Shown here: piece by piece, positions 4,043 through 63,175 of the stretch
Layout: each line of letters opens with the position of its first letter
How positions within the stretch are numbered: the first letter of the stretch is position 1
NCBI GenBank assembly: GCA_943356675.1
Contig: CALRFQ010000001.1
Location: 4,147 to 68,146 of the forward strand
DNA: 64,000 nucleotides
Direction of reading: 5' to 3'
DNA from: Candidatus Nomurabacteria bacterium
GTDB taxonomy: Bacteria; Patescibacteriota; Minisyncoccia; Phycocordibacterales; UBA9973
Program-made: the position numbers and the translations under genes
The notes under the pieces: model-generated
Seen by the model: only the letters and a program-made list of their open reading frames with translations
Databases searched by the model: none
Told to the model about the DNA's origin: nothing

Positions 4043-4298
4043 TTTACTTTTATGATTATATAATGAAGTCCATTTTAAAATGATAACGCCATGTTTGACT
4101 ACAATGCTCTTTTGGAACTTTTAGATCCGAAACCAATAAGTTTCTATCTATTTTTTGGAATCTGTAGTTTTTTATACTACAGTATCGCCCCATTCTTTTT
4201 TCTTTCTATGCTAAATGCACACCAGAAAAAAAATTAAACCAAATTCTAATCATTTAACAGAGATTGCTTTTACCTTAAAAGTTATCTCTGTTTTTTTA

Positions 4299-5672
<1,374 letters not shown>

Positions 5673-5864
5673 TTAATAATGTTTTAATAATTTTCTTGTA
5701 AAAAATACGATTAAGGCGATGATTGTGAGTATCAGAGTATCCATTGGAGTATTGAAAATAAATTCATGGCCTTCTGGAGTGAAAAGAAATTTAATAATAT
5801 ATATTAGTGTAAAAATTAAAATACATATTATTAAAATAAAACCATATTTTTTAAATTTCTCCAT
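5673..5864 (-). CDS. small 2-TM membrane protein inserted between atpG and atpD
   Basis: 63-aa ORF, two hydrophobic helices (FILIICILIFTLIYIIKFLF; LILTIIALIVFF), tightly packed 5870/5864 and 5673/5657. Confidence 0.4.
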   Translation of the reverse strand: MEKFKKYGFILIICILIFTLIYIIKFLFTPEGHEFIFNTPMDTLILTIIALIVFFTRKLLKHY

Positions 5865-5869
5865 ATACT

Positions 5870-6796: not shown

Positions 6797-6805
6797 AAAT
6801 TAAAA

Positions 6806-8308: not shown

Positions 8309-8312
8309 ATAA

Positions 8313-8720
8313 TTAATTTCTTAGTAACTTTGCTTGTAATTGATGAATTTTGTTTGATATCGTTAGGTCTAGCACATCCTCACCTACTTGTATTTTCGCA
8401 CCGCCGATTACTCCTTTATCTATCTCACTTTTTATCTCAACTTTGTCTACATCATAATAATGTTTAAGGAAGTGAATGATATCCGTGTGGCTTTTCTCAG
8501 CTAATTCTCTACTTGTCGTGACTGTGGCTGTGAGGTTTCCTTCTTCTTCATCCTCAATCTTTCTGATTTTCTCTAGCAACCTTTTCGATTCTTTCATTAG
8601 TCTGTGCTTCGCGAGGAACTTCACCACATTCTCATTGATTTTCGCACGCTCAGAAGATGATGCATCTTTACTTGCATCATATACCGCTCTTGCTATGTCA
8701 TTGAGTTTAAATGTGGCCAT
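8313..8720 (-). CDS. atpH: F0F1 ATP synthase delta (OSCP) subunit, short form
   Basis: 135 aa, position between atpF and atpA, OSCP-like C-terminus. Confidence 0.7.
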
Positions 8721-8728
8721 ATGCTAAA

Positions 8729-9223
8729 TTAAGAAATCTTACTAATTCTTTTTGTTACTTTTGTGTCGATACTGTCGTCTGTGATGTCTGTAATCAATTT
8801 CTCCGTAGCAGAAACTACAAGAGAAACAATCTCTCTCTTCGCATCTTCCATCATCTTTGCTTTTTCAGCTTCAAGATTCTTCTTACCAGAGGCTACCATA
8901 GCTTCCACATCTTTCTTTGCTTCTTCAAGCATAAGAGCTTTCTTCTCTTCTGCTTCCTTCTTGCCTTCTTGGAAGATAGTGTGAGCTTCTGCACGAGCAT
9001 CTGCTATGACTTTCGCATATTCATCCTTTGTAGTCTTTAGTAGTTCTGCATTTCTCTTCGCATCTTCCACTCCGCCCTTTATAGAGTCCGCACGCTCAGC
9101 CATGAGCTTGCGTAGTGGCTTGAGCACTAAGAAGTAAAGAATAATAAGTACTATAACGAAGTTAATCGCTTGAGCGATTATTATTTTCCAGTCGATATGA
9201 AATGTAGTGATGAATGAATCCAT
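8729..9223 (-). CDS. atpF: F0F1 ATP synthase subunit b
   Basis: 164 aa; N-terminal TM then long charged coiled coil. Confidence 0.8.
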   Translation of the reverse strand: MDSFITTFHIDWKIIIAQAINFVIVLIILYFLVLKPLRKLMAERADSIKGGVEDAKRNAELLKTTKDEYAKVIADARAEAHTIFQEGKKEAEEKKALMLEEAKKDVEAMVASGKKNLEAEKAKMMEDAKREIVSLVVSATEKLITDITDDSIDTKVTKRISKIS

Positions 9224-9327
9224 AAAATAGGTTTTAGCTTAAAGGTTTTAGGTTATAGTAATAAAATTCTGCATATTTAGCAGTATGTAGGCTTAAGGAT
9301 AGAGCTTAAACCTATAACTACTAAATA

Positions 9328-9564
<237 letters not shown>

Positions 9565-9590
9565 TTAATTAATAATGTTGACCTCTAATT

Positions 9591-10517
9591 TTAATGCACA
9601 TCTTTGTGCTCACCACCCTCACTTTCTTCATGATGCTCATCATCATGATCTTGTGATGCTATTGTGTAGTACACAAGAGTAAGGATGGCGAAAATGAATG
9701 CTTGTATCACACCGACGAAAACTTCAAGAAGAAGAAATGGTGTCGGTAGTACGTAAGCGATAATGGCTCCCATAGATGCGAGGAGAACCTCTCCTGCAAA
9801 TACGTTTCCGAAAAGACGAAATGACAGTGATGCAATCTTAGCGAATTCTCCGATAAGTTCGAGTGCACTAACGAAAACCATGATTGGAGCAGTAAGTAAT
9901 ACCATTGGTTCCTTACGAATTTTCGTAAAAATCCCTCCAATTGCCTTCAGATTAACATATTTGTTGAAAGTTTTCCAGAGACCTATAGATATAACTCCGA
10001 AGATGTTTGCACCTAGAACTGAGAGGATGGCGAGTGGTAATGTGCCGTTAATATCGGCAGTACCTGAGCGGATAAATGGGATGAATGCTCTGCCGTGCTC
10101 CCCTGCTTCTATAAGGCCAAATCCGCCGAGTGGCAATATTCCAAGCCAGTTGTTGAGTAGTACTACAAAGAAAACTGAGAATACTATAGGGAAAGCTTTG
10201 TTTGTGATCTTGCGACTGTTTGTGACTTGGTCACAAAGGTCTAGTGCTCCGTCGATAACTAGCTCAAAAAGATTTTGAATTCCTTTTGGAATCTTCTTGA
10301 GTGATAGGCGAACAGCAAGTGCGATTATAAAAATGATGACTACTACTATCCAGCTTGTGAATAGTGAGTTTGTGATAGTGAAATTGCCAATGTGAGCTAT
10401 CGGCTCTGCGTATAGAGTAGACTCGTGAGTGATTTCTGTATTTGCTGTTTCAGTAGGTGCTCCAGTTTCGGAATTAAGGTTTGTATTAAGTTCTGTATTA
10501 TTTATTTCTTGTGTCAT
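9591..10517 (-). CDS. atpB: F0F1 ATP synthase subunit a, with N-terminal extension and His/Glu-rich C-terminal tail
   Basis: 308 aa; conserved LSFRLFGNVFAGEVLL region. Confidence 0.85.
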   Translation of the reverse strand: MTQEINNTELNTNLNSETGAPTETANTEITHESTLYAEPIAHIGNFTITNSLFTSWIVVVIIFIIALAVRLSLKKIPKGIQNLFELVIDGALDLCDQVTNSRKITNKAFPIVFSVFFVVLLNNWLGILPLGGFGLIEAGEHGRAFIPFIRSGTADINGTLPLAILSVLGANIFGVISIGLWKTFNKYVNLKAIGGIFTKIRKEPMVLLTAPIMVFVSALELIGEFAKIASLSFRLFGNVFAGEVLLASMGAIIAYVLPTPFLLLEVFVGVIQAFIFAILTLVYYTIASQDHDDEHHEESEGGEHKDVH

Positions 10518-12852: not shown

Positions 12853-13824
12853 TTCCTCGTCTTCGGCTTCGCCTACGACTCCTGATGACATTGCGTCGAG
12901 GATTTTATCGATTTTGCCAGACATAATTCCGGGGATGTTGGACCATGATTGGCGGATACGGTGATCTGTAACGCGGTCTTGTGGGAAGTTGTATGTGCGA
13001 ATCTTCTCACTTCTATCCCCCGTTCCTATTTGGCCTTTGCGATCTGCAGAATATTTCTTGGCTTCTTCTTCATCCTTTAAGACTTGTAATTTTGCCATAA
13101 GGATAATCATAGCTTGCTCGCGGTTCCCAAGCTGGTTTCTCTCTGTAGTACATCTCACATCTATGCCTGTGGGTTTGTGGATAAGGCGCACTGCTGTCTC
13201 CACCTTGTTCACGTTCTGTCCGCCTGCACCTCCTGCTCGAGAATATTCCATATCAATATCAGCCGGATTGATTTCAATTTTAGATTTCTTACGGAGTGGA
13301 AGAATTGCCACTGATGCAGTGGATGTATGTATGCGCCCGTTCTTCTCAGTAGCGGGAATTCTCTGCACACGGTGCACGCCAGTCTCATATCGAAGTAGTT
13401 TATACACATCCTTACCTCTAATTTCAAAAGATGCTTCTTTGTATCCACCCACTTCATTCATAGATTCGTTTAAGGTTTTCGAAGACCAGCCCTTAGCTTC
13501 AGCATATAGCTCATACATATGTGCGAGCTCGTATGCGAAGAGTGACGCTTCGTCGCCTCCTGCACCAGCGCGAACTTCTAGAATTATTTCATTTGGAAAT
13601 TCTTCCTCCTCTTTTTCAGACTTTTGCATTTCTTCAATTTGGCGCTCCAAGCCTTCTTTTTGGAAAGTAATATTCTGAAGTTCTTCCACAGCGAGCTCTT
13701 TCATGCTCTCATCTTCTGCCACCATATCATTAATCTTCTTTTCTTCAGACAAAAGACGCTCGTATTCATTTGCGAGGTAGCTTGTCTTGTGATTCTTTTT
13801 TAATTCTTCTAAATCGAAGTTCAT
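12850..13824 (-). CDS. prfA: peptide chain release factor 1
   Basis: 324 aa; GGQ motif ([12 protein letters not shown]) and PAT tripeptide (RF1-type PxT). Confidence 0.9.
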
Positions 13825-13891
13825 ATATTTATTCTACCTCACCCCCTACCCCCTCTCCAAATTTTTCAAATTTAGCGAGGGGAAAAAGAAA

Positions 13892-14042: not shown

Positions 14043-14261
14043 CTATTTTTTAGTTTTAGTGCCGGCTGCTGCGCGCTTCTTGAAGCGGTCCACACGTCCT
14101 GCTGTGTCGAGGACCTTTTCGTTACCAGTATAGAATGGGTGGCATTGACTGCAGATTTCCACAGCGATTGTATCCATAGTTGAACCAACAGTAAATTTCG
14201 CTCCACATGCGCAAGTGATAGCTGATGCTAAGTTGTATTTTGGGTGTATTTCTTTCTTCAT
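14043..14261 (-). CDS. rpmE: 50S ribosomal protein L31 (Zn-ribbon type)
   Basis: 72 aa; MKKEIHPKY start, CxC...CxxC cysteines. Confidence 0.85.
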
Positions 14262-14285
14262 AAAAGCTATATTAGCACAGGTTTA

Positions 14286-15638
14286 TTAGTTTTGCAATAC
14301 GTCTATCATAGTAGTTTGGATCTTTGTAGCCTTGGCCATCACCTGCTTTCCGTAAGCACAAGAAGTGCCTCCAGTGCCATAGTATTTACACGCAGCCTTG
14401 ATTTCCGCAGTATAGCTACCGTTTACACCTCCAAGCTCCTTAAGGAATAAGGCTGAAGCCATAAAGGCGTCCGGAGCATTCCAAGGGTCAGGGTTTGCTT
14501 TGCCAAGTGCAGCAGATATCTTCTTTTTCATGCCCATCCATGTGGAAGGAATGAATTGTGCAGGTCCCATGGCTCCGCCCCAGCTACTTGTTCCTGCAGA
14601 TGCTATAGGGCAAGAAACTAGTGTCTTGTATGGGTCACGCCCTGCACCCGTCGCTATTTCTATGAATGGTCCCACATCGCGAGATGGCTTCATTACATTT
14701 GGGAAAGTTTTGCCGCTTCGTGAGCTCACTCCTGCACCGGTTTCTTGGTTTGTGAGGTAGCAGGAACCTTGGTCAGTTCCTAGGTTACTTTCCTGTGTGA
14801 TAATTGCGAGTATGAATGCTACTCGAACTCCAGTGATTTTGCTTGCAGAGTTTGCATAGTCGAGCGCACGGCCGAATGGGATGGCTCCTGTGTCACGCAA
14901 GTTGAAAAGTACGGCAAGAATTTCTGCACGACGCTTGGCTTTGTCCGCAAGAACTTTATTGTATTCAGATTCTTTATTTTTACTTATTGAAAGGAGTTGC
15001 TGTTTATCCTTTTCATTTGTCTCAACTTTTTTCTTTTCATTTTCGAGTGCTACTTTCACATCTATAGCTTGATTCTTCTTTTGCTCAAGAGCCTTCTTCT
15101 CTGCTTCTGTCTCAGTACGGTCACCACGGATTAGGTCTACAGATTTCTTTATCGCACCCTTTAGTGAATTGAAATTATCCACATCACTATAAGTGTCTGA
15201 TAAGCTATTCCTAGAAAGTAGGAGTGACACCATCGATATCTCATCTATCTCTCTATTCTTTCTTATAAGCTGTGAGAGTGATTCCTTTTCAAGCTCGATC
15301 TTCTCTGTGAGAGTCTGAATAGTGCTGTTCTTCTGGGTTATTTCCCCACCGAGCTTAGTGATCTGGAGGTTCTTAGACTTTATGTCGAGCTTAGACTTCG
15401 CTATCTGAGTAGTGAGTATGGCTATGTCGCGTGAAAGTGAAGTGGACTGGCCTTTCTGCGCAGAAAGCTCCTTTTGTTTTTGAGCGATCTCTTGCTCGAG
15501 TCCTGAGAGCTCTGATTCTAGGCGCGCTCTGTCTGCCTGTGCTTGGTCGAGCTCAGCGCTGGCAAAAGAAATATGTGCGCTAGAGAGTAGCATACACAAA
15601 ATCAAAATACCCGTTATAAAATTATTTCTAAAACGCAT
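14286..15638 (-). CDS. secreted coiled-coil protein with C-terminal lytic-transglycosylase-like (MltB/GH23-like) domain
   Basis: 450 aa; signal peptide, about 230 aa heptad-rich region, then AIITQESN and SWGGAMGPAQFIPSTW motifs. Confidence 0.6.
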   Translation of the reverse strand: MRFRNNFITGILILCMLLSSAHISFASAELDQAQADRARLESELSGLEQEIAQKQKELSAQKGQSTSLSRDIAILTTQIAKSKLDIKSKNLQITKLGGEITQKNSTIQTLTEKIELEKESLSQLIRKNREIDEISMVSLLLSRNSLSDTYSDVDNFNSLKGAIKKSVDLIRGDRTETEAEKKALEQKKNQAIDVKVALENEKKKVETNEKDKQQLLSISKNKESEYNKVLADKAKRRAEILAVLFNLRDTGAIPFGRALDYANSASKITGVRVAFILAIITQESNLGTDQGSCYLTNQETGAGVSSRSGKTFPNVMKPSRDVGPFIEIATGAGRDPYKTLVSCPIASAGTSSWGGAMGPAQFIPSTWMGMKKKISAALGKANPDPWNAPDAFMASALFLKELGGVNGSYTAEIKAACKYYGTGGTSCAYGKQVMAKATKIQTTMIDVLQN

Positions 15639-15702
15639 TTACTTATTATAGCATAAGAAAACCCATACAGAATGTGTATGGGTTTTCTTTATCAAAATTA
15701 AA

Positions 15703-16347
15703 TTATTTTGCTTCTTCTCCTGCACCTTCCTCTTCTTTCTTACCTTTCTTCTCAACTTCAATAGCTGATAGGTCTACTGGTGCTGCCTCCTCTTCCTTCT
15801 CAGCCTTTGCTGGAGCTACGAGAGCGACAACTTCCATACCATCAGTGAGTAATGTAATTCCAGCTGGAAGTACGATATCTTTAGCGTGAATTTGGTCTGC
15901 AAGAGTTGCAAGTGGTGAGATGTCCACAGCGATAGTGTGAGGAAGATCTTTTGGAAGACCCTTGATCTCTACTTCGTGAAGTACTTTCATAAGTGATCCT
16001 AGTCCTGATTTCTCAGCTTGTGATACACCTGTGAATTCGAGCTCAATACTAACCTCGATTGGCTTGTTCATATCCACTGCTAGGAAGTCTGCGTGAAGCG
16101 GATGGCTCTTTACAGGGTCGAACTGTACGTCATGAATGAGTACGTCTACTTTCTTACCTTCGATATCGACTACTAATGTGCTTGATTCCCCTGCGTCCTT
16201 GAAAGCTTTGATGAAGTCGATGCTAGAGACAGAGATTGGGGTATTCTCCACGCTAGCGCCATAGACAACAGCTGGGATCATGCCTTTTGCACGCACGTCA
16301 CTAAGCTTGTCTGTCTTACTTCGCTTTGTTGCGATTAATGTTTTCAT
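15703..16347 (-). CDS. rplY: 50S ribosomal protein L25 / general stress protein Ctc
   Basis: 214 aa; L25 fold signature plus acidic C-terminal tail. Confidence 0.85.
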   Translation of the reverse strand: MKTLIATKRSKTDKLSDVRAKGMIPAVVYGASVENTPISVSSIDFIKAFKDAGESSTLVVDIEGKKVDVLIHDVQFDPVKSHPLHADFLAVDMNKPIEVSIELEFTGVSQAEKSGLGSLMKVLHEVEIKGLPKDLPHTIAVDISPLATLADQIHAKDIVLPAGITLLTDGMEVVALVAPAKAEKEEEAAPVDLSAIEVEKKGKKEEEGAGEEAK

Positions 16348-16412
16348 AGGTCAAATCCTAGCATAAAATCTCATTTTGGGCAAATGCTAGTAGCCATAAT
16401 ATACATACAGTA

Positions 16413-17428: not shown

Positions 17429-19186
17429 TTATATTTTATGAGACTGACTATGACCCTCGTCTATGATATGAGTCTTTATGTATTCCTCAGTTCCCGCTCC
17501 ACTCTCCCCTAGTGCAACTTTTTTACCAGGATTGAAAATGTTTTTTGGATCAAAAATTTTCTTTGTTTCCACAAATAATCCATAAATTCCTTCACCATAC
17601 ATTTGCTTGAGGAATGGTGTGCGGATGAGTCCGTCATTGTGCTCAGCAGTAGTCGAGCCTTTGTATTCTAGGACTAGGTCATAAACTTTCTTGGATAAAT
17701 CTAAAATAATTTTTGAAGTATTTACATCCTTGAAATCCATAAGCGGGATAATATGGAAGTTTCCATTACCAGCATGGCCTGCGATGGTGTAAGTAATCGG
17801 ATATATATTTAGTATCTTCTGCAGTTTAGGAAGGAATTCTGGGAGTGTCTCTGGTCGGACTACGATATCGTCGATAAATGGTGCTGTGTGCTTGTCCTTC
17901 ACATGTTTGCGGAGTAGTGCGAAACTCTCACGACGGATATCCCAGTACTTATTTGCGTCAGTTTTACTTCTTGTAATTCTGGCATTGAAATTAAAAGGAG
18001 CAACTTTCTCAATTAGTTTCTTTGCATCTTTTGTAATTTCCTTTTCACTATCACCTGCAAATTCCACAAGCAAGATTAGCTTAGGCATTCCGCTTGTAAG
18101 CATCATTATAGCCTCAGGCCAGAAGCTCCACATAAAACGGAGCATTCCCCACAATCCTTTATTCTTCAAAAAGTCTGGGAAGAATTTAATAGCGAGCTTC
18201 ATTGTGGCATCGTCATAACTCTCGATACTTTCTGGGTTGAATGGCAAGATAGTGTCCACAAGTTCTCCGAGGCGAGATAAATCCTTCATGAATATTACAG
18301 CGAGCTTACTTTCCTTCTTAACATCTACTAAGTGAAATGTTGCTTCTGTCACTATTCCAAATGTACCTTGTGAGCCTACAATAAGCTTAGGTAGGTCGAA
18401 GACTTCAGTCTCAGGGTTCCAAACATTCCATAAGAAGTATCCAGCAGAATTTTTTGAAACATTTGGCTTAGCTTTTTCAATCTCTGCAAAATTATCTTTA
18501 ATAAGTGCATATAGGTTTTTGTATAAATCACCTTCATAGTCACCTTGAGCAATTTTTGCATAAAGTTCTTTCTTGGAAAGTGAGCTCACTGTGTATTCGC
18601 GTCCATCAGAAAGTACAATCTTCACTTCTTTTAAGTAATCTTCTGTTTTTCCGTAGTTTAGAGTCTTCTCACCAGCAGAATTATTGCCCACCATACCACC
18701 CATAGCATTTATACTCTTCGATGCTGTGTAGCAAGGGAGCAATAAATTCTCTTTGAGTGTAGCCATTTCGAAATCTCGATAGAAGCATCCGGGCATAACT
18801 ATCCCACTACCTGTTATTTTTACATTATGAGCATTTGGATACTTCGGAAGTATTTCAAATGGTGTAACTCTTTCCACACTTTTGATTTCATTCATATACT
18901 TTGTGAAATCTAGTATTATTGATTCACCAATTGCTCCGCCAGCCATGCATGTGCCAGCTGAGCGTGCTGTAATAGAATATTTACCACCTTTAACATTTTC
19001 TTCATTTACCCACTTCACCAAATTACATACATCTTCTTTATTTTTTGGGAAAATTACAACTTCAGGCCTTACTTCAAGTAAGCTAGCATCGCGGGAGTAT
19101 TTTGTAAGCACTTCGTCACTATTTTCTACATCACCTTTAATAAAATTTTTGAGTTCTTTTGCTAATTCCATGCATATAGTATACAC
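17429..19186 (-). CDS. FAD-binding oxidoreductase (FAD-linked oxidase/GlcD/D-lactate dehydrogenase family)
   Basis: 585 aa; FAD-binding PCMH-type region near N-terminus, C-terminal oxidase domain. Confidence 0.7.
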   Translation of the reverse strand: MYTICMELAKELKNFIKGDVENSDEVLTKYSRDASLLEVRPEVVIFPKNKEDVCNLVKWVNEENVKGGKYSITARSAGTCMAGGAIGESIILDFTKYMNEIKSVERVTPFEILPKYPNAHNVKITGSGIVMPGCFYRDFEMATLKENLLLPCYTASKSINAMGGMVGNNSAGEKTLNYGKTEDYLKEVKIVLSDGREYTVSSLSKKELYAKIAQGDYEGDLYKNLYALIKDNFAEIEKAKPNVSKNSAGYFLWNVWNPETEVFDLPKLIVGSQGTFGIVTEATFHLVDVKKESKLAVIFMKDLSRLGELVDTILPFNPESIESYDDATMKLAIKFFPDFLKNKGLWGMLRFMWSFWPEAIMMLTSGMPKLILLVEFAGDSEKEITKDAKKLIEKVAPFNFNARITRSKTDANKYWDIRRESFALLRKHVKDKHTAPFIDDIVVRPETLPEFLPKLQKILNIYPITYTIAGHAGNGNFHIIPLMDFKDVNTSKIILDLSKKVYDLVLEYKGSTTAEHNDGLIRTPFLKQMYGEGIYGLFVETKKIFDPKNIFNPGKKVALGESGAGTEEYIKTHIIDEGHSQSHKI

Positions 19187-19228: not shown

Positions 19229-19246
19229 TGGTATAATCTCTGCATG
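19229..19246 (+). promoter_or_regulatory. extended -10 promoter fused to start (TGGTATAAT-CTCTGC-ATG), leaderless
   Basis: TGgTATAAT at 19229..19237, ATG at 19244. Confidence 0.45.
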
Positions 19247-23267: not shown

Positions 23268-23762
23268 TTATTTATTATCTATTTTATTAATTCTTCTATC
23301 GTGTCTTTCTATATTTTTCCACTCTATACTTAAAAAAATCTTTATCGCTTCTTTCATTTCTTCTGTTGTTAGAAAGCGTGTACCAAAAGAAATTATATTT
23401 GCATTATTGTGCTCGCGAGCAAGCTTCACTATCTCGTACGGATCAGTCGACATATTGCCTTCAATGTCCACAGCACCTTTCGCGAGTACCCCTCCGTAAA
23501 AGACTGCTGCACGCACACCTGGCACTCTGTTTGCACTCATAGCCTCACCTTGGCCTGAGCCGCCAAATATAACACCGAAGCTACCCTCATCGCTAGCTAC
23601 TGCTTCCGCACAAGGGCGTATAAAGTCTGGATAATCATCTTCTTTATCAAAAAGAAAAGGCCCTCTATCTATTGGCTCGTATCCTAGAGATTTTATATAT
23701 ATCACTATTTCTTTTTTGAGTTCAAAACCTGTGTGGTCAGATGCTATATATACATTTTTCAT
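23268..23762 (-). CDS. rpiB: ribose-5-phosphate isomerase B
   Basis: 164 aa; RpiB/LacAB family (VYIASDHTGFELK, GGSGQGEAM). Confidence 0.85.
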   Translation of the reverse strand: MKNVYIASDHTGFELKKEIVIYIKSLGYEPIDRGPFLFDKEDDYPDFIRPCAEAVASDEGSFGVIFGGSGQGEAMSANRVPGVRAAVFYGGVLAKGAVDIEGNMSTDPYEIVKLAREHNNANIISFGTRFLTTEEMKEAIKIFLSIEWKNIERHDRRINKIDNK

Positions 23763-23824
23763 ATGAGTATTATAACCTGCTCATAATTTTTATACAATGG
23801 GAATATAATGCTTATATTTTATCT

Positions 23825-24517
23825 TTACTTATCCTTCTTGTAGTACCCAGTGGCGAATTCTCCGACAGGCTGAGGCCCATCGATAACATAATTGGCAACC
23901 ATAGTACCTTCTGGGGTGGTAAAATCAATTCGGAATTTTTGCTTACTATTATTATTAATTAAACTAATGTTAGGATATTCGTTATACTCCCATGACCCAG
24001 ATTCAACTATTTTATTTTCGTGTTGCATGGTGTAGGTTTTCTTCCCATCTTTATCCGTAAATTCGATATCTTGTCCGAGAATTTCACCATTAGTATTTTT
24101 GTCTATTGCTACCCATTTACCGAGCAGCCAATTCCCTACTAGTGCATCTGGCCTTTTTGTTGATGTGCTTACTTCACTTTTTGTGATCTGAAAAGTCTTA
24201 GCTTTTCCTCCAGCAACCTCGTATTCACTGTATTGGTACTTTTCACCAGTTTTTTTATCTACAGCATCATAATGCACCTCAGTCCCATCATACGAGTTCT
24301 CTCCATATGAAAAATTTGAAGAAATTTCAGAAGCCTTATCAATTATCAATTTATCTTTAAATTCTATGAAATCCTTTTCTGAAAGTATAAAATCATCAAT
24401 TTTATAAATGTAATTAATCATTTTTGTTATATTTTTTTTAGAATTATTTGAACGCTGAAACATTATTCCAGCAATGATAATTATAATGATAATAGAAAAT
24501 GCCACGATATTGTTCAT
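23825..24517 (-). CDS. hypothetical membrane-anchored protein
   Basis: 230 aa; N-terminal TM IVAFSIIIIIIIAGIMF, rest Lys/Glu-rich. Confidence 0.4.
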   Translation of the reverse strand: MNNIVAFSIIIIIIIAGIMFQRSNNSKKNITKMINYIYKIDDFILSEKDFIEFKDKLIIDKASEISSNFSYGENSYDGTEVHYDAVDKKTGEKYQYSEYEVAGGKAKTFQITKSEVSTSTKRPDALVGNWLLGKWVAIDKNTNGEILGQDIEFTDKDGKKTYTMQHENKIVESGSWEYNEYPNISLINNNSKQKFRIDFTTPEGTMVANYVIDGPQPVGEFATGYYKKDK

Positions 24518-24532
24518 AAAATGATTATATCA

Positions 24533-33667: not shown

Positions 33668-34640
33668 ATAATTGTACGCCGACAGCTTTTCTCACATCGG
33701 TAATTTTACTATTAACTAAATTGTGAATTTTACTTTTTCCCTCCTTTAGTATATCGAGCACTAATCCTGGATTCTCTTCGTACATCTTTCTCTTCTCTCT
33801 CATTGGTGTGAAATACTTTTCAATCTCATCAAATAGCATATCTTTTGATTCTTTGTATCCTAATCCACCGTCTAAATATCTTTTCCTTAGGTTATCTAAT
33901 TCGTCACCATGTAAAAATAATTTGTGAAGTGCAAAAATATTACAAGTTTCTGGATCTTTCTTTTCGTCGGGAGTCTTCGAATCAGTTACGATACTCATCA
34001 CAGCCTTCTTTACTACAGCGGAATCAGCAAAAAGTGGAATAGTATTGCCGTAACTCTTACTCATTTTCCTTCCGTCTACTCCGGGGACTATTGCAACTTC
34101 CGCCATTATCTTTGCAACAGGCAATTTGAAAGTCTCGCCGAAAATATTGTTGAACTTCTGTGCAGTGTCACGCGCATACTCCACATGCTGCTTTTGATCA
34201 GAGCCGACTGGTACGATGTCTGCATCTTGGATGAGAATATCCGCAGCCATAAGCATTGGGTAATCAAAGAGTCCTACAGTCACCTCCTTCACCTTTTGAT
34301 TTGCATCTTTATACGATGTAGCACGTTCGAGGAATGGCATTGTGGTAATACAATTGAAGTACCATGTGAGCTCTGTGACTTCTGGTAGATCTGACTGCTT
34401 GAAAAGAACAACCTTTTTTGGGTCAAGTCCGCAAGCCAAATAATCCATAATAATGTTTAAAATTCCGCTTGATAGTTTGTCTTTATCTTGTACAGTTGTA
34501 AGTGCATGAAAATCTGCAATAAATACACGAGTGTCGTATTCGTCTTGCATATCTACAAATTGCTTGAGTGCCCCGAAATAGTTACCTATATGAAGCGCTC
34601 CTGAGGGCTGAATGCCCGAAAGTAGTATCTTTTTAGCCAT
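33657..34640 (-). CDS. trpS: tryptophanyl-tRNA synthetase
   Basis: 327 aa; GIQPSGALHIGNY (HIGH) and KMSKS motifs. Confidence 0.9.
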   Translation of the reverse strand: MAKKILLSGIQPSGALHIGNYFGALKQFVDMQDEYDTRVFIADFHALTTVQDKDKLSSGILNIIMDYLACGLDPKKVVLFKQSDLPEVTELTWYFNCITTMPFLERATSYKDANQKVKEVTVGLFDYPMLMAADILIQDADIVPVGSDQKQHVEYARDTAQKFNNIFGETFKLPVAKIMAEVAIVPGVDGRKMSKSYGNTIPLFADSAVVKKAVMSIVTDSKTPDEKKDPETCNIFALHKLFLHGDELDNLRKRYLDGGLGYKESKDMLFDEIEKYFTPMREKRKMYEENPGLVLDILKEGKSKIHNLVNSKITDVRKAVGVQLYDN

Positions 34641-34709
34641 TTAAATATAATACCAAAAATATGAAAGTTTTGCACATATTCTACACAGGGATATCCGAAA
34701 AATGCTTGC

Positions 34710-34745
34710 TTGCAAATTTGATCTCTGTGATACAATAGCCCTATG
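34710..34745 (+). promoter_or_regulatory. promoter TTGCAA-N15-TGATACAAT fused to the dnaB start (leaderless)
   Basis: TGaTACAAT-AGCCCT-ATG; the 6-nt spacer AGCCCT is identical to that of rsmI. Confidence 0.45.
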
Positions 34746-37416: not shown

Positions 37417-37453
37417 TTGAAAAAAGCAAGTACCACGCTATAATTGGCGTATG
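37417..37453 (+). promoter_or_regulatory. promoter TTGAAA-N16-TATAAT-TGGCGT-ATG, leaderless cysS
   Basis: TTGAAA at 37417..37422, TATAAT at 37439..37444, ATG at 37451. Confidence 0.5.
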
Positions 37454-41338: not shown

Positions 41339-41779
41339 TTATTTTTTAGTATTTAATTTAGAACTCTTTAAAGTATCTTTAGTTGGTACTGTGACTATTG
41401 GCTCAGGTACAGGTGCTGGGATTTGTGCCAAGCATGATCCTTGATTGAAATCATCTTCTGTACATTCAGTCTTAATACAATTTATAGATTCACTCTTACA
41501 TACTTCTGTACAGTCGTCGTTCTTACAAGATGCGAAATCAGAAGCGTTTATTGTGTATTCATTATATAAAGAAAGATTGTTGGGTGGACATTCACCATCA
41601 ATACCACAATCCCTGTATCTACATGATTCCTGAGTGTTGTCACAGGAAGTCTCTACTACGAAATCATAATCTTTTTGAACGTAGAAAATATAATAAGAAA
41701 CATATATAACTGTAATACAACTTAAAATAATTACGTATAGGAAATAATTATGTCCTTTTTGTTCTTCTTCTTCTGGCAT
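41339..41779 (-). CDS. Cys-rich membrane-anchored protein
   Basis: 146 aa; N-terminal TM, about 18 Cys in the ectodomain, Pro-rich tail. Confidence 0.4.
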   Translation of the reverse strand: MPEEEEQKGHNYFLYVIILSCITVIYVSYYIFYVQKDYDFVVETSCDNTQESCRYRDCGIDGECPPNNLSLYNEYTINASDFASCKNDDCTEVCKSESINCIKTECTEDDFNQGSCLAQIPAPVPEPIVTVPTKDTLKSSKLNTKK

Positions 41780-41798
41780 ATAATTATTTTAGCATAAA

Positions 41799-42731
41799 TT
41801 ATTTAAAAAGTATCACACTACCCAGTATCATCACTCCGATTGCAATAATCTTTGGCACTAGCACCCTTATTGAAATATTCTCCTTCACGATATTCGGGAA
41901 GAATTTGGTACAGAAGAGTGTGATGAACAAGACGAGTGCTGGCTGGAAGCTACCTACAAGGTAGACCATGGTGACTGGCGCGATGACCAATGCGAAATTC
42001 GTGAGCAAGTTCCCTATTATTGTGGCAAATTCACTAAGAGTGTTTAGTACAAAGATCCGAACACCGCCATTTTTGTTCATAGCTGTGAATTCGCGGCGAT
42101 ATTTAGGCACAAAAATATAGATAAACAGTCCGATTATTCCGAGTCCAAAGTATTCCCAGAATGAAGACACCCAGAAATTCTCACCGATTGTTACGTATTT
42201 AAAGATTACTCCGCTAAGTGCGATCATCAAGCAAGCGGAAAGCATGTAAAGTACGGGCTTCCACTTGAAACTTCTTTTATTCGCAGTGAAATCTATGGAA
42301 ATAATTGCTACACCTAGTAATACAATGGCGGAACCAATCATTTGATTCATTGTGAGAGTTTCTCCTAGAAAAACAAACCCAAGAATATATCCAAAAATAG
42401 GAACAGTAAGGAACCATGGCACTACAGCCGAAACATCTTCGATTTCAAGAGTGAATAAATAGAGTATTATCCACGCTATGGACAGGCCTCCGGTAGAAAT
42501 TAGGAGTAATTTGTCTATAAATGAAATATCAAATACTCCTACAGTGAAGAATGGAATAATAAGTGCGACAAATACACCGATAAGACTAGAAAAAAGCACA
42601 AGGCCACCAGAGCCGTGCTCACCCTTCGAATAATGCTCAACTAAGTATTGATCTGATATGTTTACGAGAGCCCAGAGGAACGGTGCACCCAGTGCGATGA
42701 AAAACCATGTCATATTGCAATATGATAGCAT
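41799..42731 (-). CDS. EamA/DMT-superfamily transporter
   Basis: 310 aa, 10 TM helices, two EamA-like repeats. Confidence 0.65.
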   Translation of the reverse strand: MLSYCNMTWFFIALGAPFLWALVNISDQYLVEHYSKGEHGSGGLVLFSSLIGVFVALIIPFFTVGVFDISFIDKLLLISTGGLSIAWIILYLFTLEIEDVSAVVPWFLTVPIFGYILGFVFLGETLTMNQMIGSAIVLLGVAIISIDFTANKRSFKWKPVLYMLSACLMIALSGVIFKYVTIGENFWVSSFWEYFGLGIIGLFIYIFVPKYRREFTAMNKNGGVRIFVLNTLSEFATIIGNLLTNFALVIAPVTMVYLVGSFQPALVLFITLFCTKFFPNIVKENISIRVLVPKIIAIGVMILGSVILFK

Positions 42732-47467: not shown

Positions 47468-48586
47468 TTATATTCCCTCTTTTTTAAGATCTTCGAGGAG
47501 TTCTTTTGATTTCTTTGAGAGCTTCGTTGGCATCTTTATTTGGATGCGGAGAATGATGTCGCCACGGCGAGACATACTGCCACCTTGAGGCACGCCTTTG
47601 CCTCGCACACGTAGGAGCTCACCATGATTCACACCTTCAGGGATTGTGACGTCCATATCACCATCAAGAGTCTTCAGTTTATATTCAAAACCGAGGATTG
47701 CATCTGTGAGCTTGATCGGCAAATCCATAATCAAGTTTGAACCATCGCGTCTGTAAATTGAATGCGGCTTCACATTTACTTTTATGTATAGGTCGCCAGT
47801 TTGGCCATGAGAGATTGCTTCACCTTTGCCAGTCATTCTTATCATCTCGCCATTATTTATGCCTGCTGGGATTGCGATGCTAATGTCTTCCTGCTTATTG
47901 TGCACGCCTTTGCCTTTACACTCACTGCATTTCTCATTTGGAATTTTCCCTGCGCCGTGACAATGCTCACACACACGAGCAGTTTCGAACGTGCCGAGGA
48001 TTGAACGCTTCATCTCACGCACCTGGCCTTTTCCATTACAAGTTTTGCAAGTGTCCATCTTGGTGCCAGCTTTCGCTCCGCTACCACTACAAGTATCGCA
48101 TGTGGACTGCTTACTAATGAGCACAGAGCGCTTCACGCCGAAAATTGACTCCTCAAAGGAAATATCTATCTCTGTAGAAATATCGCGTCCACGGGCCTGC
48201 TGGCTTCTTCCACGGCCACCCATGCCTCCACCTCCGAAAAATTCTCCGAAGATATCGCCAATGTCGCCCATATCAAACTCCACTCCGCCTCCTTGCTGGA
48301 AGCCAGAGAAATCAAATCCTCCGAAGCCTCCTGCACCTTGATTGAATCCGCCGTATCCTTGACCTCCGCCCATATTTGGGCCGGCACTTCCGAATCTATC
48401 GTACTGAGCACGCTTGCCATCGTCCGATAGGGTCTGATAAGCCTCGTTCACTTCTTTGAACTTCGAATCATCACCCTTATTTTTATCAGGATGGTATTTA
48501 TGCGCGAGTTTATGATAGGCCTTTTTCATTTCGTCCTTACTCGCACCTTTATTTACACCCAATATTTCGTAGTAATCTTTTGCCAT
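47468..48586 (-). CDS. dnaJ: chaperone DnaJ
   Basis: 372 aa; J domain with HPD, G/F-rich linker, four CxxCxGxG repeats. Confidence 0.9.
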
Positions 48587-48828
48587 ATTTTAATTATACT
48601 TATTTATACTTAAATTGACAAATTATTATTTTAATGTTAATTTTAATATAAAATTAATTTTATATTTTTATGTGGTTTAAAACAAAATCCCCGAAAAAGT
48701 CTTCTCCGGAATCCTATGATTTAGTAGAGTACGGAATGGTTAAGCTTGAAATAATAGTTACCCTTGCTTTGATATTAATTTTAGGATCTGCATTCGGAAT
48801 CTATGTTCATTTCAATCCTTAAGTACAA

Positions 48829-51587: not shown

Positions 51588-52202
51588 TTACTTTCTATAT
51601 TCAAAAACTACCACGCGGGCTGGGCGGATTATTTTTTCGCCGATTTTGTAGCCGGATTGAGTGACAGATGAGATGGTGTGATCTTTAGATTCATCAGAAG
51701 TTTCTGCTGTGCTGATGCTCTCATGAAGATTTGGATCGAATTTAATTCCAGTCTGGTTTATTGGAGCCACGTTATTGTCCTCTAGAACGCGGTAGAATTG
51801 CGAGCGAATATACTCTATTCCGTTTCTCCAATTCGCATCAACTTTCTCCCAAGCTTCCTTGTTGCCCATTGCCATATCGAAGCTATCTAGGACTGGAAGT
51901 AAGTCCTCTATCATTGCTGTAGTTACATGAGTACGGAGCTCCTTATATTTCTCTCCTTCACTCTTTTGAAGGTTCACATAGTCAGCCTTCGCTCTCTGCC
52001 ATCCTGTGAGGTACTCTTCCTTCTCTTTGCGAGTAAGCTTTAGGTCTGCACGGAGCTTCTTCACCACATCTTTCGTAGGAAGTGCGTCACCATCTTCGTT
52101 GCTTTCTTCATACACCAAATCCTGCTCCGGAATATCTACATGGAGGGCTTCAAGAATTTCTTGGTCAACATCTTTAGTTGTATCTTCATCATTCGTATTC
52201 AT
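51588..52202 (-). CDS. grpE: nucleotide exchange factor GrpE
   Basis: 204 aa; coiled-coil N-terminus and GrpE beta-domain (GYKIGEKIIRPARVVV). Confidence 0.85.
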   Translation of the reverse strand: MNTNDEDTTKDVDQEILEALHVDIPEQDLVYEESNEDGDALPTKDVVKKLRADLKLTRKEKEEYLTGWQRAKADYVNLQKSEGEKYKELRTHVTTAMIEDLLPVLDSFDMAMGNKEAWEKVDANWRNGIEYIRSQFYRVLEDNNVAPINQTGIKFDPNLHESISTAETSDESKDHTISSVTQSGYKIGEKIIRPARVVVFEYRK

Positions 52203-52217
52203 ACGCGCATTATAGCA
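52200..52217 (-). promoter_or_regulatory. extended -10 promoter fused to the grpE start (TGCTATAAT-GCGCGT-ATG), leaderless
   Basis: Minus-strand reading of 52217..52200; lies between the rpsI terminator and the grpE ATG. Confidence 0.5.
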
Positions 52218-52229
52218 AAAATTGGTTAA

Positions 52230-52253
52230 AGAAAAAACCCTCTTTCGAGGGCA
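52230..52253 (-). terminator. rho-independent terminator of the rplM-rpsI operon
   Basis: GCCCTC-GAAA-GAGGGTTTTTTCTTT on minus strand. Confidence 0.6.
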
Positions 52254-57835: not shown

Positions 57836-58985
57836 TCATAATAAATGGATCACAATTCCCGTCTGTAATCTTGCATACATCGAGAAATAACTGCCCACCA
57901 AGAGTAGTAACATTGAACTTCTTCTTTTCTGTACCGCTTCCTATCTGAATACCGTTTGCCACAACTTCTCGGAACCAAAGTGCAGTATCTATATCTGTAA
58001 TCAGAAATATCATAGAAGGCACTGCAATAGTCTTTGGCAGTAGTGCGATGGACTTTTCAAACATAACACTCCAAGACTTTTGCACTTGCTCTATAGTAGG
58101 GGCAATTTCATCTTTCGATTTATCATCTAGCATATTATTGGCATGAAGTGATATAAGCGACTTCGCTTGATCCACAGGCATACCAAACTCACGAAATGCG
58201 CGAACTATCCCATACTTTCCTATCGGGAATGAAATTGTGGATATAAGAACATCTCCAGATACTATGGCAATGTCTGTGAGCTCACCTCTTATGTCTATTA
58301 AGAAATATGCATCATTATCCTCGAAGCGCTCTCTCGCACCTGTATAAATAGATGTAAGGAATGTCGAAAACGATATCGGAGTATGATGGAACACCTTCAT
58401 CAAGCTATCCTTGATACGAGTAAGGCAAATCTCTGGGCTGATACTCACGAACAAATGAATATCTAGGGTTTTAGCCTTTTTACCAATTGGATCATCTGTC
58501 TTGTATCCATTTAGCCTACTTTGGAAGATTTTACTCTCTATGAGAATAGATTTCCCTTCTATGTCCTCATATTTCTTTTTATATATATCTACTAGGTTTT
58601 TGAGCTCATCAGAGACTAAATCGTCAATCATACCTTTTGTAATATAAAAAGGTTCAGGCTTCTCTATATGAAGTTCTCTAGTTTCTCCGATGAACCATGG
58701 TGAAGCAAGCACGCACATTATTTCCTCTGGTGCACCAAGCTTCGCATTGTATATCTCCGTCGCAGACTGATACAATGACTTCTGCATATCGACAAAAAAT
58801 GTTTCAAAATCGAGCTCATCTTGAAAAGCGATATCTACTCTTGATTGTGTAATTATAGTTGGAGACTTTTGAATGCCATCAATTTTTGGAAATATTTTTA
58901 CAAGTGCACCGCCTACGCTCCCAGAACCAATATCAAATATTGCAATAATTTTTTCTTTATTTTTATTTCCACCAAAAAATCCCAT
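57795..58985 (-). CDS. actin-like ATPase of the PilM/FtsA family
   Basis: 396 aa; phosphate-1 IAIFDIGSGSVGGALV and phosphate-2 FLIDIRGELTDIAIV motifs; no ftsZ/ftsQ nearby, so PilM is favoured. Confidence 0.55.
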   Translation of the reverse strand: MGFFGGNKNKEKIIAIFDIGSGSVGGALVKIFPKIDGIQKSPTIITQSRVDIAFQDELDFETFFVDMQKSLYQSATEIYNAKLGAPEEIMCVLASPWFIGETRELHIEKPEPFYITKGMIDDLVSDELKNLVDIYKKKYEDIEGKSILIESKIFQSRLNGYKTDDPIGKKAKTLDIHLFVSISPEICLTRIKDSLMKVFHHTPISFSTFLTSIYTGARERFEDNDAYFLIDIRGELTDIAIVSGDVLISTISFPIGKYGIVRAFREFGMPVDQAKSLISLHANNMLDDKSKDEIAPTIEQVQKSWSVMFEKSIALLPKTIAVPSMIFLITDIDTALWFREVVANGIQIGSGTEKKKFNVTTLGGQLFLDVCKITDGNCDPFIMIEAIAASRTNYEK

Positions 58986-58998
58986 ATAGTTTATTATA
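58983..58998 (-). promoter_or_regulatory. -10 box fused to the start (TATAAT-AAACTAT-ATG), leaderless PilM-like gene
   Basis: Minus-strand reading of 58998..58983. Confidence 0.4.
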
Positions 58999-59090: not shown

Positions 59091-60836
59091 CTAATCCAAT
59101 ACTGCTTTAATACGGCGGATGCCAGCTGCTACTGCTTCTTCTTTTTGAATTTTGAAATACCCAAGTTCTTTTGTATTTGTGACGTGTGGTCCTCCGCAGA
59201 ATTCTTTTGAGAATTGATTGCCACTTTCGTCTTCGACGAAGTATACAGATACAGTTTCAGGATACTTTGCTCCGAATTCCATCTGTGCACCAATCTTCTC
59301 CGCCTCAGCAAGCGGCATTTCTCGGCGAATTACATTCAGTCCTGCACTTATCTTCTCATTTACGAGGTCTTCCACCTTCTTTTTCTCTTCATCTGTAAGT
59401 TTGTGGTCGCACATGAAGTCTATACGTAGTCTCTCTTCTGTAATATTACTTCCTCTTTGCTTAATATCAGGGCTCACAACTTTCTGCAGTGCTGCTAAAA
59501 GCAAATGATGTGCGGTATGCAAACGAATTGTCTTCTCATTGTGATTTGCAAGTCCACCTTTAAACATTCCCGCAGAAGAAGTTTGTGATAGTTTCTGGTG
59601 CTCCGCCATTTTCTGATTGAAATCTTCTAAATTAATTTCAATTCCTTTTTCCTTAGCAATTTCGAGTGTAAGTTCTATTGGAAAACCGTAAGTAGTAGCT
59701 AGAACAAATGGATCTGTACCTTTTTCGAATTCTTTGAGTCCATTTGTGAGTGTTTGTCGGAATTTAGACTCTTCATTTGCAATTTCTTTCTTAATTACTT
59801 CACTATTTGAAAGTAGTTCTGGGTATACATCCTTGTACTGCTCTATAATAATGTCGACAATTTGAGAAAGCGCTTCATTTTTGAAGCCCAAAGTATCTGC
59901 AAACCTTACTGCACGGCGAAGTAATCGGCGTAGGATATATCCGCGTCCTGTGTTTCCGGGAATTGCACCGTCTGCCATTATAAATACGCTTGTACGAATA
60001 TGATCAGCTACAATTCTTTTTGCTTTTGTATTATCTACTGTTGAGTGTTCGTTTATTTTAGAAATAATATTTGAAAATAGATCAGTATCAAAAATATTAT
60101 TTTTACCCTGAACTGCCATAACGACACGCTCAAGTCCTGAGCCAGTGTCTACGTTCTGTTGAGATAATTTTCCGACAACTTTCCCATCCTTTTTCACATA
60201 CTGCATGAAAACATCGTTCCAAATTTCTACAACTTTCTGAGACTCATCGGCTTTCATGTATTCTTCCTTTGTAAGGTCACCAAGCCCTTCTGTTGTGACA
60301 TCATAAAACATCTCAGTGTCTGGTCCGCATGGGCCATTATCTCCCACACTCCACCAGTTTGACTTCGCTCCCATGAAATAAATTCTATTCTCAGGAATAA
60401 ACTTTTTCCAAATCTCAAACGCTTCTGTATCCTTTGGAGAATTTTCGTCACCCTCAAACACAGTTACATAAAGTCTATTTGGATCAAGCCCAAGTCCTTC
60501 ATCTTTTGAAGTTAGAAATTCATAGCTCCATGCTATGGCCTCATCCTTGAAATAATCTCCTAGAGACCAGTTACCCATCATTTCGAAAAATGTGTCATGA
60601 GTATTGTCACCTACTTCATCTATATCTTGAGTGCGGACGCATTTCTGAACGTTTACAAGCTTAGTTCCTAGTGGATGCTTCTCGCCCATTAAATACGGCA
60701 CAAGAGGCTGCATACCAGCAGTGTTGAAAAGCACAGATGGATCGTTCTCTGGCACGAGTGATGCTGAAGGTATTATTTTGTGGCCGCGCTTCTCAAAAAA
60801 TGTTAGGAAGCGAGAGCGGATTTCATTTGATTGCAT
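59091..60836 (-). CDS. alaS: alanyl-tRNA synthetase, compact form (catalytic + tRNA-recognition + editing domains, no C-Ala domain)
   Basis: 581 aa; class II motifs, editing-site HTAHHLL and CGGPHV. Confidence 0.9.
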   Translation of the reverse strand: MQSNEIRSRFLTFFEKRGHKIIPSASLVPENDPSVLFNTAGMQPLVPYLMGEKHPLGTKLVNVQKCVRTQDIDEVGDNTHDTFFEMMGNWSLGDYFKDEAIAWSYEFLTSKDEGLGLDPNRLYVTVFEGDENSPKDTEAFEIWKKFIPENRIYFMGAKSNWWSVGDNGPCGPDTEMFYDVTTEGLGDLTKEEYMKADESQKVVEIWNDVFMQYVKKDGKVVGKLSQQNVDTGSGLERVVMAVQGKNNIFDTDLFSNIISKINEHSTVDNTKAKRIVADHIRTSVFIMADGAIPGNTGRGYILRRLLRRAVRFADTLGFKNEALSQIVDIIIEQYKDVYPELLSNSEVIKKEIANEESKFRQTLTNGLKEFEKGTDPFVLATTYGFPIELTLEIAKEKGIEINLEDFNQKMAEHQKLSQTSSAGMFKGGLANHNEKTIRLHTAHHLLLAALQKVVSPDIKQRGSNITEERLRIDFMCDHKLTDEEKKKVEDLVNEKISAGLNVIRREMPLAEAEKIGAQMEFGAKYPETVSVYFVEDESGNQFSKEFCGGPHVTNTKELGYFKIQKEEAVAAGIRRIKAVLD

Positions 60837-60851
60837 ATTTATACTATAGCA
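60834..60851 (-). promoter_or_regulatory. extended -10 fused to the alaS start (TGCTATAGT-ATAAAT-ATG), leaderless
   Basis: Minus-strand reading of 60851..60834. Confidence 0.45.
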
Positions 60852-60899: not shown

Positions 60900-61391
60900 T
60901 TACTGACCAATGTCTTGAGAATTCTGAGGCATTTCTTTGAAGAATCTTGATTTACGTAGTTGCTCTTCAATGAACCAAAGCACGATAAATATGAAAAGAG
61001 TAAGGATTGTCGCAATAGTAGCTAGATTGTAAAGTCCGAAGCCAGATGCCATACCAATACCTGCCGAGACCCAAAGTCCTGTCGCTGTAGTAAGACCCAT
61101 AAGTTTATTCTCTTTAGTGAAAATAAGTCCCGTGCCGATGAACCCAACACCCACGATTATCTGAGATACAATCATAGTAGGATTGAGCCCTGGAAGTCCT
61201 ATATACATCTTCACAATCTCCTCTGACACAAGCACAAAAAGTGCTGAACCCATAGCTACGAGCGCATATGTGCGCATACCGGCTGTCTTGTGAGCCCAAA
61301 CGCGTTCTATACCGATAATCATTCCTAATATTAAAGCTACACCAAGATGAGTAAGGATATCTAAATTAATAGGGTTTAATAAATTTTGCAT
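60900..61391 (-). CDS. MgtC/SapB-family membrane protein
   Basis: 163 aa; ILGMIIGIERVWAHKTAGMRTYALVAMGSALF signature. Confidence 0.75.
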   Translation of the reverse strand: MQNLLNPINLDILTHLGVALILGMIIGIERVWAHKTAGMRTYALVAMGSALFVLVSEEIVKMYIGLPGLNPTMIVSQIIVGVGFIGTGLIFTKENKLMGLTTATGLWVSAGIGMASGFGLYNLATIATILTLFIFIVLWFIEEQLRKSRFFKEMPQNSQDIGQ

Positions 61392-61440
61392 ATTTATATA
61401 ATATCAAATTTTTAAACTATTTGTAATACTAGATGTTGAT

Positions 61441-63139: not shown

Positions 63140-63175
63140 TCTCTAAAAATACATTAATTATGCTAATATGTCTAT

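Follow-up and report, generated by a model that had tools for sequence, protein, structure and literature searches.

In the 64-kb stretch of contig CALRFQ010000001.1 analysed here (the window, meaning the whole stretch at its full length), from a Candidatus Nomurabacteria bacterium, roughly half of the first genes of transcription units are probably read from sigma-70-type promoters, mostly of the extended -10 type, that give predicted leaderless mRNAs, and initiation elsewhere would be independent of the Shine-Dalgarno (SD) sequence. The window has a G+C content of ~39% and carries housekeeping genes plus one tRNA-Ile gene. The promoter at the coordinates of the original prediction is that of dnaB (34710..34745, +), with the sequence TGATACAAT-AGCCCT-ATG, in which the -35-like hexamer TTGCAA (34710-34715) and the boxes TGa (34728-34730) and TACAAT (34731-34736) are followed by the discriminator AGCCCT and the ATG at 34743-34745. 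The DnaB_N Pfam domain begins at residue 18 of the encoded protein. Back to back with it, across a divergent spacer of 102 nt, lies the trpS promoter (34638..34655, -; ATG 34640), which reads TGGTATTAT-ATTTAA-ATG.

A -10-like hexamer was defined as a word with at most one mismatch to TATAAT and with A2 and T6 fixed. In the window this hexamer most often stands 6 nt from the start codon, a sharp peak made up of 13 genes in 70, with 4 more at 7 nt and about 1.5 at each other position. The hexamer is found 6-7 nt before the ATG at 20 of 63 gene starts, compared with 29 of the 2122 other ATGs in the window (odds ratio 34, p=9e-20); when TGn is demanded as well, the numbers are 10 of 63 and 2 of 2122 (p=1e-14). 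After the starts at 19244, 19171 and 42713 had been corrected, we counted 21 good cases of (TGn)TAnnnT-N6-8-ATG among ~70 genes, 15 of them with TGn and 19 with a pyrimidine at -1. The original prediction spoke of "at least eight" genes and quoted motifs for rsmI, dnaB, a kinase, cysS, grpE, alaS, a "PilM-like" gene and trhO. All eight motifs were found at their places with the spacings given; against the 21 cases, the figure is true but too low. Pfam also backs the names RsmI, TrhO, PfkB, DnaB, CysS, GrpE and AlaS, while the "PilM-like" protein, a 396-aa open reading frame (ORF) product, matches no Pfam family, even with the cut-off relaxed to E<=0.01.

The DnaB of the window matches 80 genome loci with 67-96% identity, all of them from metagenome-assembled Patescibacteria that are labelled Paceibacteria, Paceibacterota, Nomurabacteria or Parcubacteria, or "Saccharibacteria" in some automated records. 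This places the organism, an ultra-small and uncultured bacterium, in the class Paceibacteria of the Candidate Phyla Radiation (CPR), close to Nomurabacteria, and identical copies of window proteins are present on environmental contigs. These 80 loci, with 1317 ORFs, served as the clade set, and gene-context counts were made on the 80 loci and the window together. At spacing 6 the clade set contains 164 hexamers (TGn in 112), where the background amounts to ~18 (TGn in ~2), and counting the -10 box at -6 to -8 from start codons gives a spacing-6 peak both in the window and in the 80 loci. Among dnaB orthologs, TGnTA[CG]AAT lies 6-7 nt ahead of an in-frame ATG in 59-61 of 78 loci, often with TTGACA upstream. 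For trpS the -10 box is 5-9 nt ahead of the ATG in 58 of 76 loci (TGn in 54), and for eamA at the same 5-9 nt in 8 of 12, while the cysS promoter is kept only in relatives in which cysS is divergent from rplU. In the dnaB and trpS orthologs the promoter-N6/7-ATG arrangement is retained while the discriminator, the N-terminal codons and the length of the N-terminal tail differ. Such retention over deep divergence shows that the distance between promoter and ATG is under purifying selection. It is a real pattern, common to the whole clade, and both of its design types are already known from other bacteria.

A hexamer close to the start codon could also act on the ribosome, i.e. TAnnnT might be an AT-rich non-SD ribosome-binding or enhancer element on leadered mRNAs, as in group B of GeneMarkS-2. 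The AT-rich genome and the A/T-rich sequence upstream of all starts, operon-internal ones included, fit this idea, which we nevertheless hold to be very unlikely. An element of this kind should precede all genes, yet the motif is 5-6 times rarer at close-packed operon-internal genes: its share is 36% at divergent genes, 24-29% at gaps of 30-149 nt and 6-7% at overlaps or gaps below 10 nt. Moreover, 65-69% of the clade sites carry the promoter-specific extended -10 (T in 69% at -15 and G in 65% at -14), and TTGACA (<=1 mismatch) is enriched only at spacers of 15-17 nt, where it accompanies 12% of sites and 2% of control hexamers (~6-fold). The best -35 boxes belong to promoters without TGn, namely cysS and dnaJ among the 21 of the window, and the -35 is weak in most of the others. 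Terminators are also found immediately upstream: the promoters of rsmI, the gene at 15638 and grpE adjoin terminator-like hairpins of the preceding gene. Since, in addition, divergent gene pairs of the window share spacers of just 36-102 nt, no room is left for a 5' untranslated region (UTR). Finally, the codon that opens a long ORF after an extended -10 at spacing 6 is ATG in 144 cases, GTG in 4 and TTG in 0, which would follow from a need for the AUG itself to form the 5' end. Five independent features (TGn, the -35 box, gene context, terminators with short spacers, and ATG exclusivity) thus mark the hexamers as probable promoters and not ribosome-binding signals.

From these observations we propose that about half of the transcription units open with a sigma-70-type promoter, usually of the extended -10 type (TGnTAnnnT) and sometimes with a TTGACA-like box 15-17 nt upstream, with a -10 hexamer that mostly ends 6 nt before the ATG and in fewer cases 7-8 nt. 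Mapped transcription start sites (TSSs) of 49 bacteria are centred on a point 7 bp downstream of the -10 element, and in 93% of E. coli library variants a YRY triplet with its middle at this point agrees in position with the TSS (PMC12641261). A 6-nt discriminator puts the A of the ATG at the seventh position and makes T(-1)A(+1)T(+2) a YRY triplet, so that the predicted transcript begins with AUG. On such a leaderless mRNA the ribosome would engage the 5'-terminal AUG without an SD:anti-SD helix. The remaining genes, in tight operons or behind leaders, lack an SD and show only an A-rich, G-poor stretch before the start; their initiation would most plausibly proceed by termination-reinitiation coupling, by unstructured A/U-rich entry sites, or by both. 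What the sequences show is the motif with its spacing and promoter-type features, its restriction to unit-first genes, its conservation in the clade and the lack of SD enrichment; where exactly transcription starts, how ribosomes are recruited and what the 16S rRNA 3' end looks like are inferred. The claim of the original prediction that initiation is SD-independent and that transcripts begin at or next to the AUG is supported by TGn, the -35 boxes, gene context, ATG exclusivity, ortholog conservation and the lack of SD enrichment.

Several points weigh against the leaderless reading. In ~20 kb flanking the window, the motif occurs at only 3-4 of 22 genes. A scan for the sigma-70 -35/-10 consensus found 64 sites, with 56.9 +/- 8.8 in shuffles, i.e. 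no enrichment in AT-rich DNA, so that the case is built on where the motifs lie and beside which genes, and not on how many there are. For the clade set, the longest ORF defined each gene start, and the 80 loci are syntenic around dnaB, so orthologous genes were counted repeatedly and are not independent events. In addition, spacings of 7, 8, 9 and 10 nt after an extended -10 are enriched as well (57, 38, 20 and 17 sites vs 144 at 6), and those of 8-10 nt imply leaders of 1-3 nt and not strictly leaderless mRNAs. The wider spacings favour the view that the promoters are real and the start lies a few nucleotides off the A of the AUG, which would leave mini-leaders of 1-5 nt or cost the mRNA its AUG, so that translation would use a start further downstream; alternatively, it would let leadered isoforms from an upstream promoter carry most translation. 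The same view gains from Nanosynbacter lyticus, the only CPR species with mapped TSSs, in which the -10-to-TSS distance is more variable than in most bacteria (PMC12641261). We consider it unlikely: in the dominant class exactly 6 nt separate hexamer and ATG, and the start reads Y(-1)A(+1)T(+2), the optimal TSS context, and the abutting terminator hairpins and short divergent spacers leave no space for additional upstream promoters.

The generic scan that does not rise above shuffles, together with longest-ORF calls that are wrong at 19223, 11743, 16442, 33518 and 42731, also raises the question whether the whole pattern is an artefact of start assignment or base composition, with the true starts elsewhere and the hexamers mere chance TA-rich words. 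We find this hardly credible. The hexamer precedes 1.4% of other ATGs and 32% of gene starts, and in the orthologs the promoter tracks the ATG while the N-terminal length varies. In every case checked, the ORF offers no start codon ahead of the ATG. Pfam matches open at residues 2-18 of the proteins and at profile positions 1-7, which fits the chosen ATGs, and the protein lengths from public gene calls on identical contigs agree with the chosen starts.

The second part of the finding concerns the SD sequence, the near-absence of which had been claimed for the window and is confirmed. GGAGG or AGGAG occurs at -20..-4 in 0 of 70 genes, and GGAG, GAGG and AGGA are rarer upstream of window genes than at random positions. 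The predicted pairing with the canonical anti-SD ACCUCCUUU is weaker at gene starts than at random positions (mean -0.22 vs -1.59 kcal/mol; p=1e-6), and G is almost missing at -9 to -5. No gene class in the clade shows SD enrichment, with SD-like 4-mers at 1-9% vs 8.4% at random positions. For 438 operon-internal starts, the observed/expected ratio of SD 4-mers is 0.7-1.1, and the enriched words are TTAA, TAAA, ATAA, AATA and TAAT, which reflect a composition bias and not a positioned motif; A makes up 50-59% and G 4-10% of positions -11..-2, and T stands at -1 in 51%. For example, the operon atpB-E-F-H-A-G-(63 aa)-D with atpC (3596..10517, -), confirmed by Pfam, has internal starts that are preceded by A/T-rich, G-poor sequence, and the lack of GGAGG-like sequences noted earlier for atpA/H/F/E/G/D holds. 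Since operon-internal and leadered genes are without SD, their initiation must be SD-independent too. The leaderless type makes up ~30% of all genes and roughly half of the unit-first genes, so "predominantly leaderless", as the original prediction put it, applies to unit-first genes only, of which roughly half qualify; the remaining units have SD-less leaders.

A further step would be that the lineage gave up SD:anti-SD pairing altogether and has a 16S tail without CCUCC, with every unit-first gene translated from a 5'-terminal AUG and every downstream one by coupling or A-rich entry. This is possible, although we put it at somewhat less than an even chance. If true, abandonment of the SD would give bacteria a parallel to the initiation of mitochondria and haloarchaea, one that arose along with the reduction of the CPR ribosome (bS21 loss, short bS1). 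Mitochondria and haloarchaea combine leaderless mRNAs with SD-independent initiation on other mRNAs, which is the same combination, although in different domains or organelles and with different promoters, so that the likeness is an analogy only. On the ribosomal side, only 48% of Parcubacteria yielded an anti-SD CCTCCT motif; this group often lacks bS21 as well, and most CPR bS1 proteins are short, with 3-4 S1 domains (Tsurumaki et al. 2022, PMC9297842). The same paper reports that SD helices are probably not formed in part of the Parcubacteria. The 52% of Parcubacteria without the motif belong to the same phylum-level group as the window lineage and are the rRNA-side counterpart of the SD-free mRNAs described here; that study dealt with the rRNA side and not with mRNA start contexts or promoters. 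Rfam and ARAGORN revealed no rRNA in the window (the tRNA-Ile was the sole RNA gene found), universal 16S/23S motifs (<=2 mismatches) had no match in 90 fetched loci, and no rRNA was found in the 10 kb added to each window end through exact-protein look-ups. Bacteroidetes retain an anti-SD without using it, and because of this a canonical CCUCC in the 16S rRNA, which had been named as grounds for refutation, would not refute SD-independent initiation.

Compared with known systems, the window shares features with several. Leaderless genomes of group C have a Pribnow box 6-8 nt from the starts of operon-first genes; they occur in Actinobacteria and Deinococcus-Thermus, with 25-50% leaderless operons (PMC6028130). 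As in M. tuberculosis and D. deserti of this group, a TANNNT box stands here 6-8 nt before operon-first starts and not before internal genes. However, code-11 members of group C are almost all high-GC and use SD at leadered and internal genes, whereas here the GC content is 39%, most promoters carry TGn, and SD is not enriched. The absence of SD and the A-rich, G-poor sequence before all starts, internal ones included, recall group B (FCB/Bacteroidetes; PMC6028130), but in that group one non-SD motif precedes all genes on leadered mRNAs and "cannot be a promoter", in contrast to the distinct promoter class found here at first genes only. Low-GC code-4 Mollicutes also fall in group C, with 30-60% of transcripts predicted leaderless (10.1101/2022.07.25.500264). 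They are likewise reduced low-GC genomes with many predicted leaderless transcripts; unlike the present lineage, they use code 4, still yield SD-type ribosome-binding-site models and belong to another phylum. The genome is thus a combination of the putative group C promoter signal with SD-free starts everywhere. Among the papers that could be searched, none of relevance joins leaderless transcription with Patescibacteria, Parcubacteria or CPR. The finding extends known kinds to a new lineage and is no new mechanism, as leaderless architecture and SD-poor genomes are each documented elsewhere.

One consequence concerns gene calling. Start models based on SD will misplace starts in metagenome-assembled genomes of Patescibacteria, and longest-ORF or public calls for aspS, EamA and the CNNM gene of one relative (L089) differ from the promoter-defined start. 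A promoter-at-minus-6 model would give near-exact starts and show where units begin and end, in a phylum to which a large part of the uncultured bacteria belongs. The mRNA-side evidence also complements the losses of anti-SD and bS21 in Parcubacteria and points to a minimal SD-free initiation in a reduced bacterium. TGnTATAAT-N6-ATG would be a ready expression cassette for genetics in Patescibacteria, and CPR genes are predicted to need added ribosome-binding sites for expression in E. coli.

The other promoters of the leaderless type are distributed over the whole window. That of rsmI (1379..1396, -; ATG 1381) reads TGTTATAAT-AGCCCT-ATG and lies directly 3' of a terminator-like hairpin CCCCTCA..TGAGGGG with a T-rich tail; the Pfam TP_methylase match of RsmI runs from residue 7. 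The 13-mer AATAGCCCTATGG, reported as shared by rsmI and dnaB, is indeed present in two copies in the window. As a regulatory or family motif it was rejected, with discriminator 6-mers nearly all unique among 144 clade promoters, and it is apparently promoter plus ATGG with no further meaning. Further along the minus strand come trhO (2772..2791; TGCTATAAT-ACAAAAAT-ATG, a discriminator of 8 nt, ATG 2774), a release factor gene (13822..13836; TAGAAT-AAATAT-ATG), a 72-aa ORF (14259..14277; TGCTAATAT-AGCTTTT-ATG, 7 nt), and an SLT-domain gene (15636..15653; TGCTATAAT-AAGTAA-ATG, ATG 15638) directly 3' of a terminator-like hairpin. They are followed on the same strand by rplY, encoding bL25 (16345..16363; TGCTAGGAT-TTGACCT-ATG, 7 nt), and an FAD-oxidase gene (19169..19183; TATACT-ATATGC-ATG, ATG 19171), for which the longest-ORF GTG at 19186 falls inside the promoter. 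The PfkB kinase gene (19229..19246, +; ATG 19244) has TGGTATAAT-CTCTGC-ATG. On the minus strand, rpiB (23760..23774) has TATAAT-ACTCAT-ATG, and a 230-aa ORF (24515..24532; TGATATAAT-CATTTT-ATG) begins right behind the stop codon of the upstream M23 peptidase gene.

In cysS (37417..37453, +; ATG 37451), TTGAAA-N16-TATAAT-TGGCGT-ATG combines a good -35 with the lack of TGn. Its -10 box lies inside a short inverted repeat, ACGC-TATAAT-TGGCGT (37435-37450, +), which ends at the ATG and was flagged by the terminator scan, although it is probably no terminator. The remaining cases on the minus strand are a 146-aa ORF (41777..41794; TGCTAAAAT-AATTAT-ATG), the EamA gene (42711..42730; TGCTATCAT-ATTGCAAT-ATG, 8 nt, probable true start 42713), dnaJ (48584..48621; TTGTCA-N17-TATAAT-TAAAAT-ATG), and grpE (52200..52252), in which a terminator-like hairpin at 52237-52252 is followed by TGCTATAAT-GCGCGT-ATG with the ATG at 52202. 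The 396-aa ORF (58983..58998; TATAAT-AAACTAT-ATG, 7 nt, ATG 58985), alaS (60834..60851; TGCTATAGT-ATAAAT-ATG, ATG 60836) and an mgtC-family gene (61389..61406; TGATATTAT-ATAAAT-ATG) complete this strand. A YkuD L,D-transpeptidase gene (63161..63178, +) has TGCTAATAT-GTCTAT-ATG and a divergent spacer of 36 nt.

In other units the -10 box is separated from the ATG by ~12-160 nt of sequence that contains no SD. For example, the distance from an extended -10 to the ATG is 28 nt for ORF 11680, 36 nt for ORF 16478, 34 nt for gene 44730 and 159 nt for the RRM gene at 12078. The last of these encodes an RRM-domain RNA-binding protein of 95 aa (11791-12078, -) and has a strong extended -10, TGGTATACT, with its hexamer at 12238-12243. 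This arrangement predicts an unusually long 5' UTR (region 12079-12246) in a genome of mostly absent or short leaders. Upstream of dnaK, by ~190 nt, there is a near-consensus TTGACA-N18-TATACT (50985-50956, -), which suggests a long regulated leader; a PaaX-like regulator gene (50973-51536, +) lies between grpE and dnaK on the opposite strand (region 50766-51587). Longest-ORF and sometimes public starts clash with those supported by promoter or homology at 33404/33518, 19244/19223, 19171/19186, 11680/11743, 16478/16442 and 42713/42731. Accordingly revised, aspS has 436 aa, not 474 aa, and the CNNM gene in L089 (12810) has a probable start 10 codons upstream, preceded by TGTTATAAT-N7-ATG.

The repeats called family A, which the original prediction had set in this promoter context, turned out to be something else. 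The window has 3-4 copies, at 36164-36289 (+), 31207-31323 (-), 22445-22559 (-) and, in degenerate form, 44728-44836 (-), and their presence among relatives is patchy. Units are ~105-120 bp long, AT-rich inside and bounded by the terminal inverted repeats ATCCCGTTAGA...TCTAACGGGAT, and they end in CTAACGGGATGG ahead of the genes 22448, 31210 and 36286, with the degenerate copy at 44730. In the closest relative (L005, DnaB 96%), recR begins 4 nt past the dnaB stop (TAATTATGGACCCG). Compared with it, the window carries 118 additional bp (36168-36285), cleanly inserted between two copies of a duplicated ATGG, of which the one on the 3' side restores the recR start codon. Copies with covarying arms occur at the same junction in at least five distant loci (L043, L044, L048, L050 and L058) and are absent from ~65 other loci; the family is also found in L031 and L041, and the duplicated word in L041 is ATGA, which overlaps stop and start. 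Family A elements are thus putative insertions like miniature inverted-repeat transposable elements (MITE-like) whose integration at start codons duplicates ATGR, and they have nothing to do with the promoters. The genes behind them are operon-internal and not leaderless, and the insertions at ATGR starts probably survive because the duplication preserves both genes. A role as a start-codon-occluding RNA stem or as an RNase III site that makes leaderless mRNAs was dropped in view of the clean insertion and 4-bp duplication seen against L005.

The leader of rplU (bL21) contains a hairpin (37358-37410, -), which in relatives L008 and L010 reads CCCATTAGAAGC-GTT-TTCTAATAGG and resembles the family A terminal repeat folded on itself. 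AAGGA upstream of rplU (37357) was considered as an SD and rejected, being the 3' arm of this hairpin and unconserved; its counterpart in relatives is TTCTAATAGG. A second candidate, the G-rich tract GGAGAGGGGGTAGGGGGTGAGG (13837-13858, -) in the otherwise AT-rich 218-nt spacer before the release-factor gene, was also rejected, as it sits directly upstream of the -10 box and thus of the predicted start.

Some minor features were recorded as well. The tRNA-Ile gene (10802-10874) is preceded at a distance of ~68 nt by an extended -10, TGGTATATT (10943-10950, -), its likely promoter. The ORF at 10498-10872, AtpI-like on public contigs, has a GTG start that overlaps this tRNA gene, and it probably begins further downstream. 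Terminator-like sites are enriched in the 33-53 kb region (23 found vs 12.5 +/- 3.4 expected), and long perfect palindromic A/T-flanked hairpins between convergent genes, at 43663-43705, 38806-38841 and 36955-36990, look like bidirectional intrinsic terminators.

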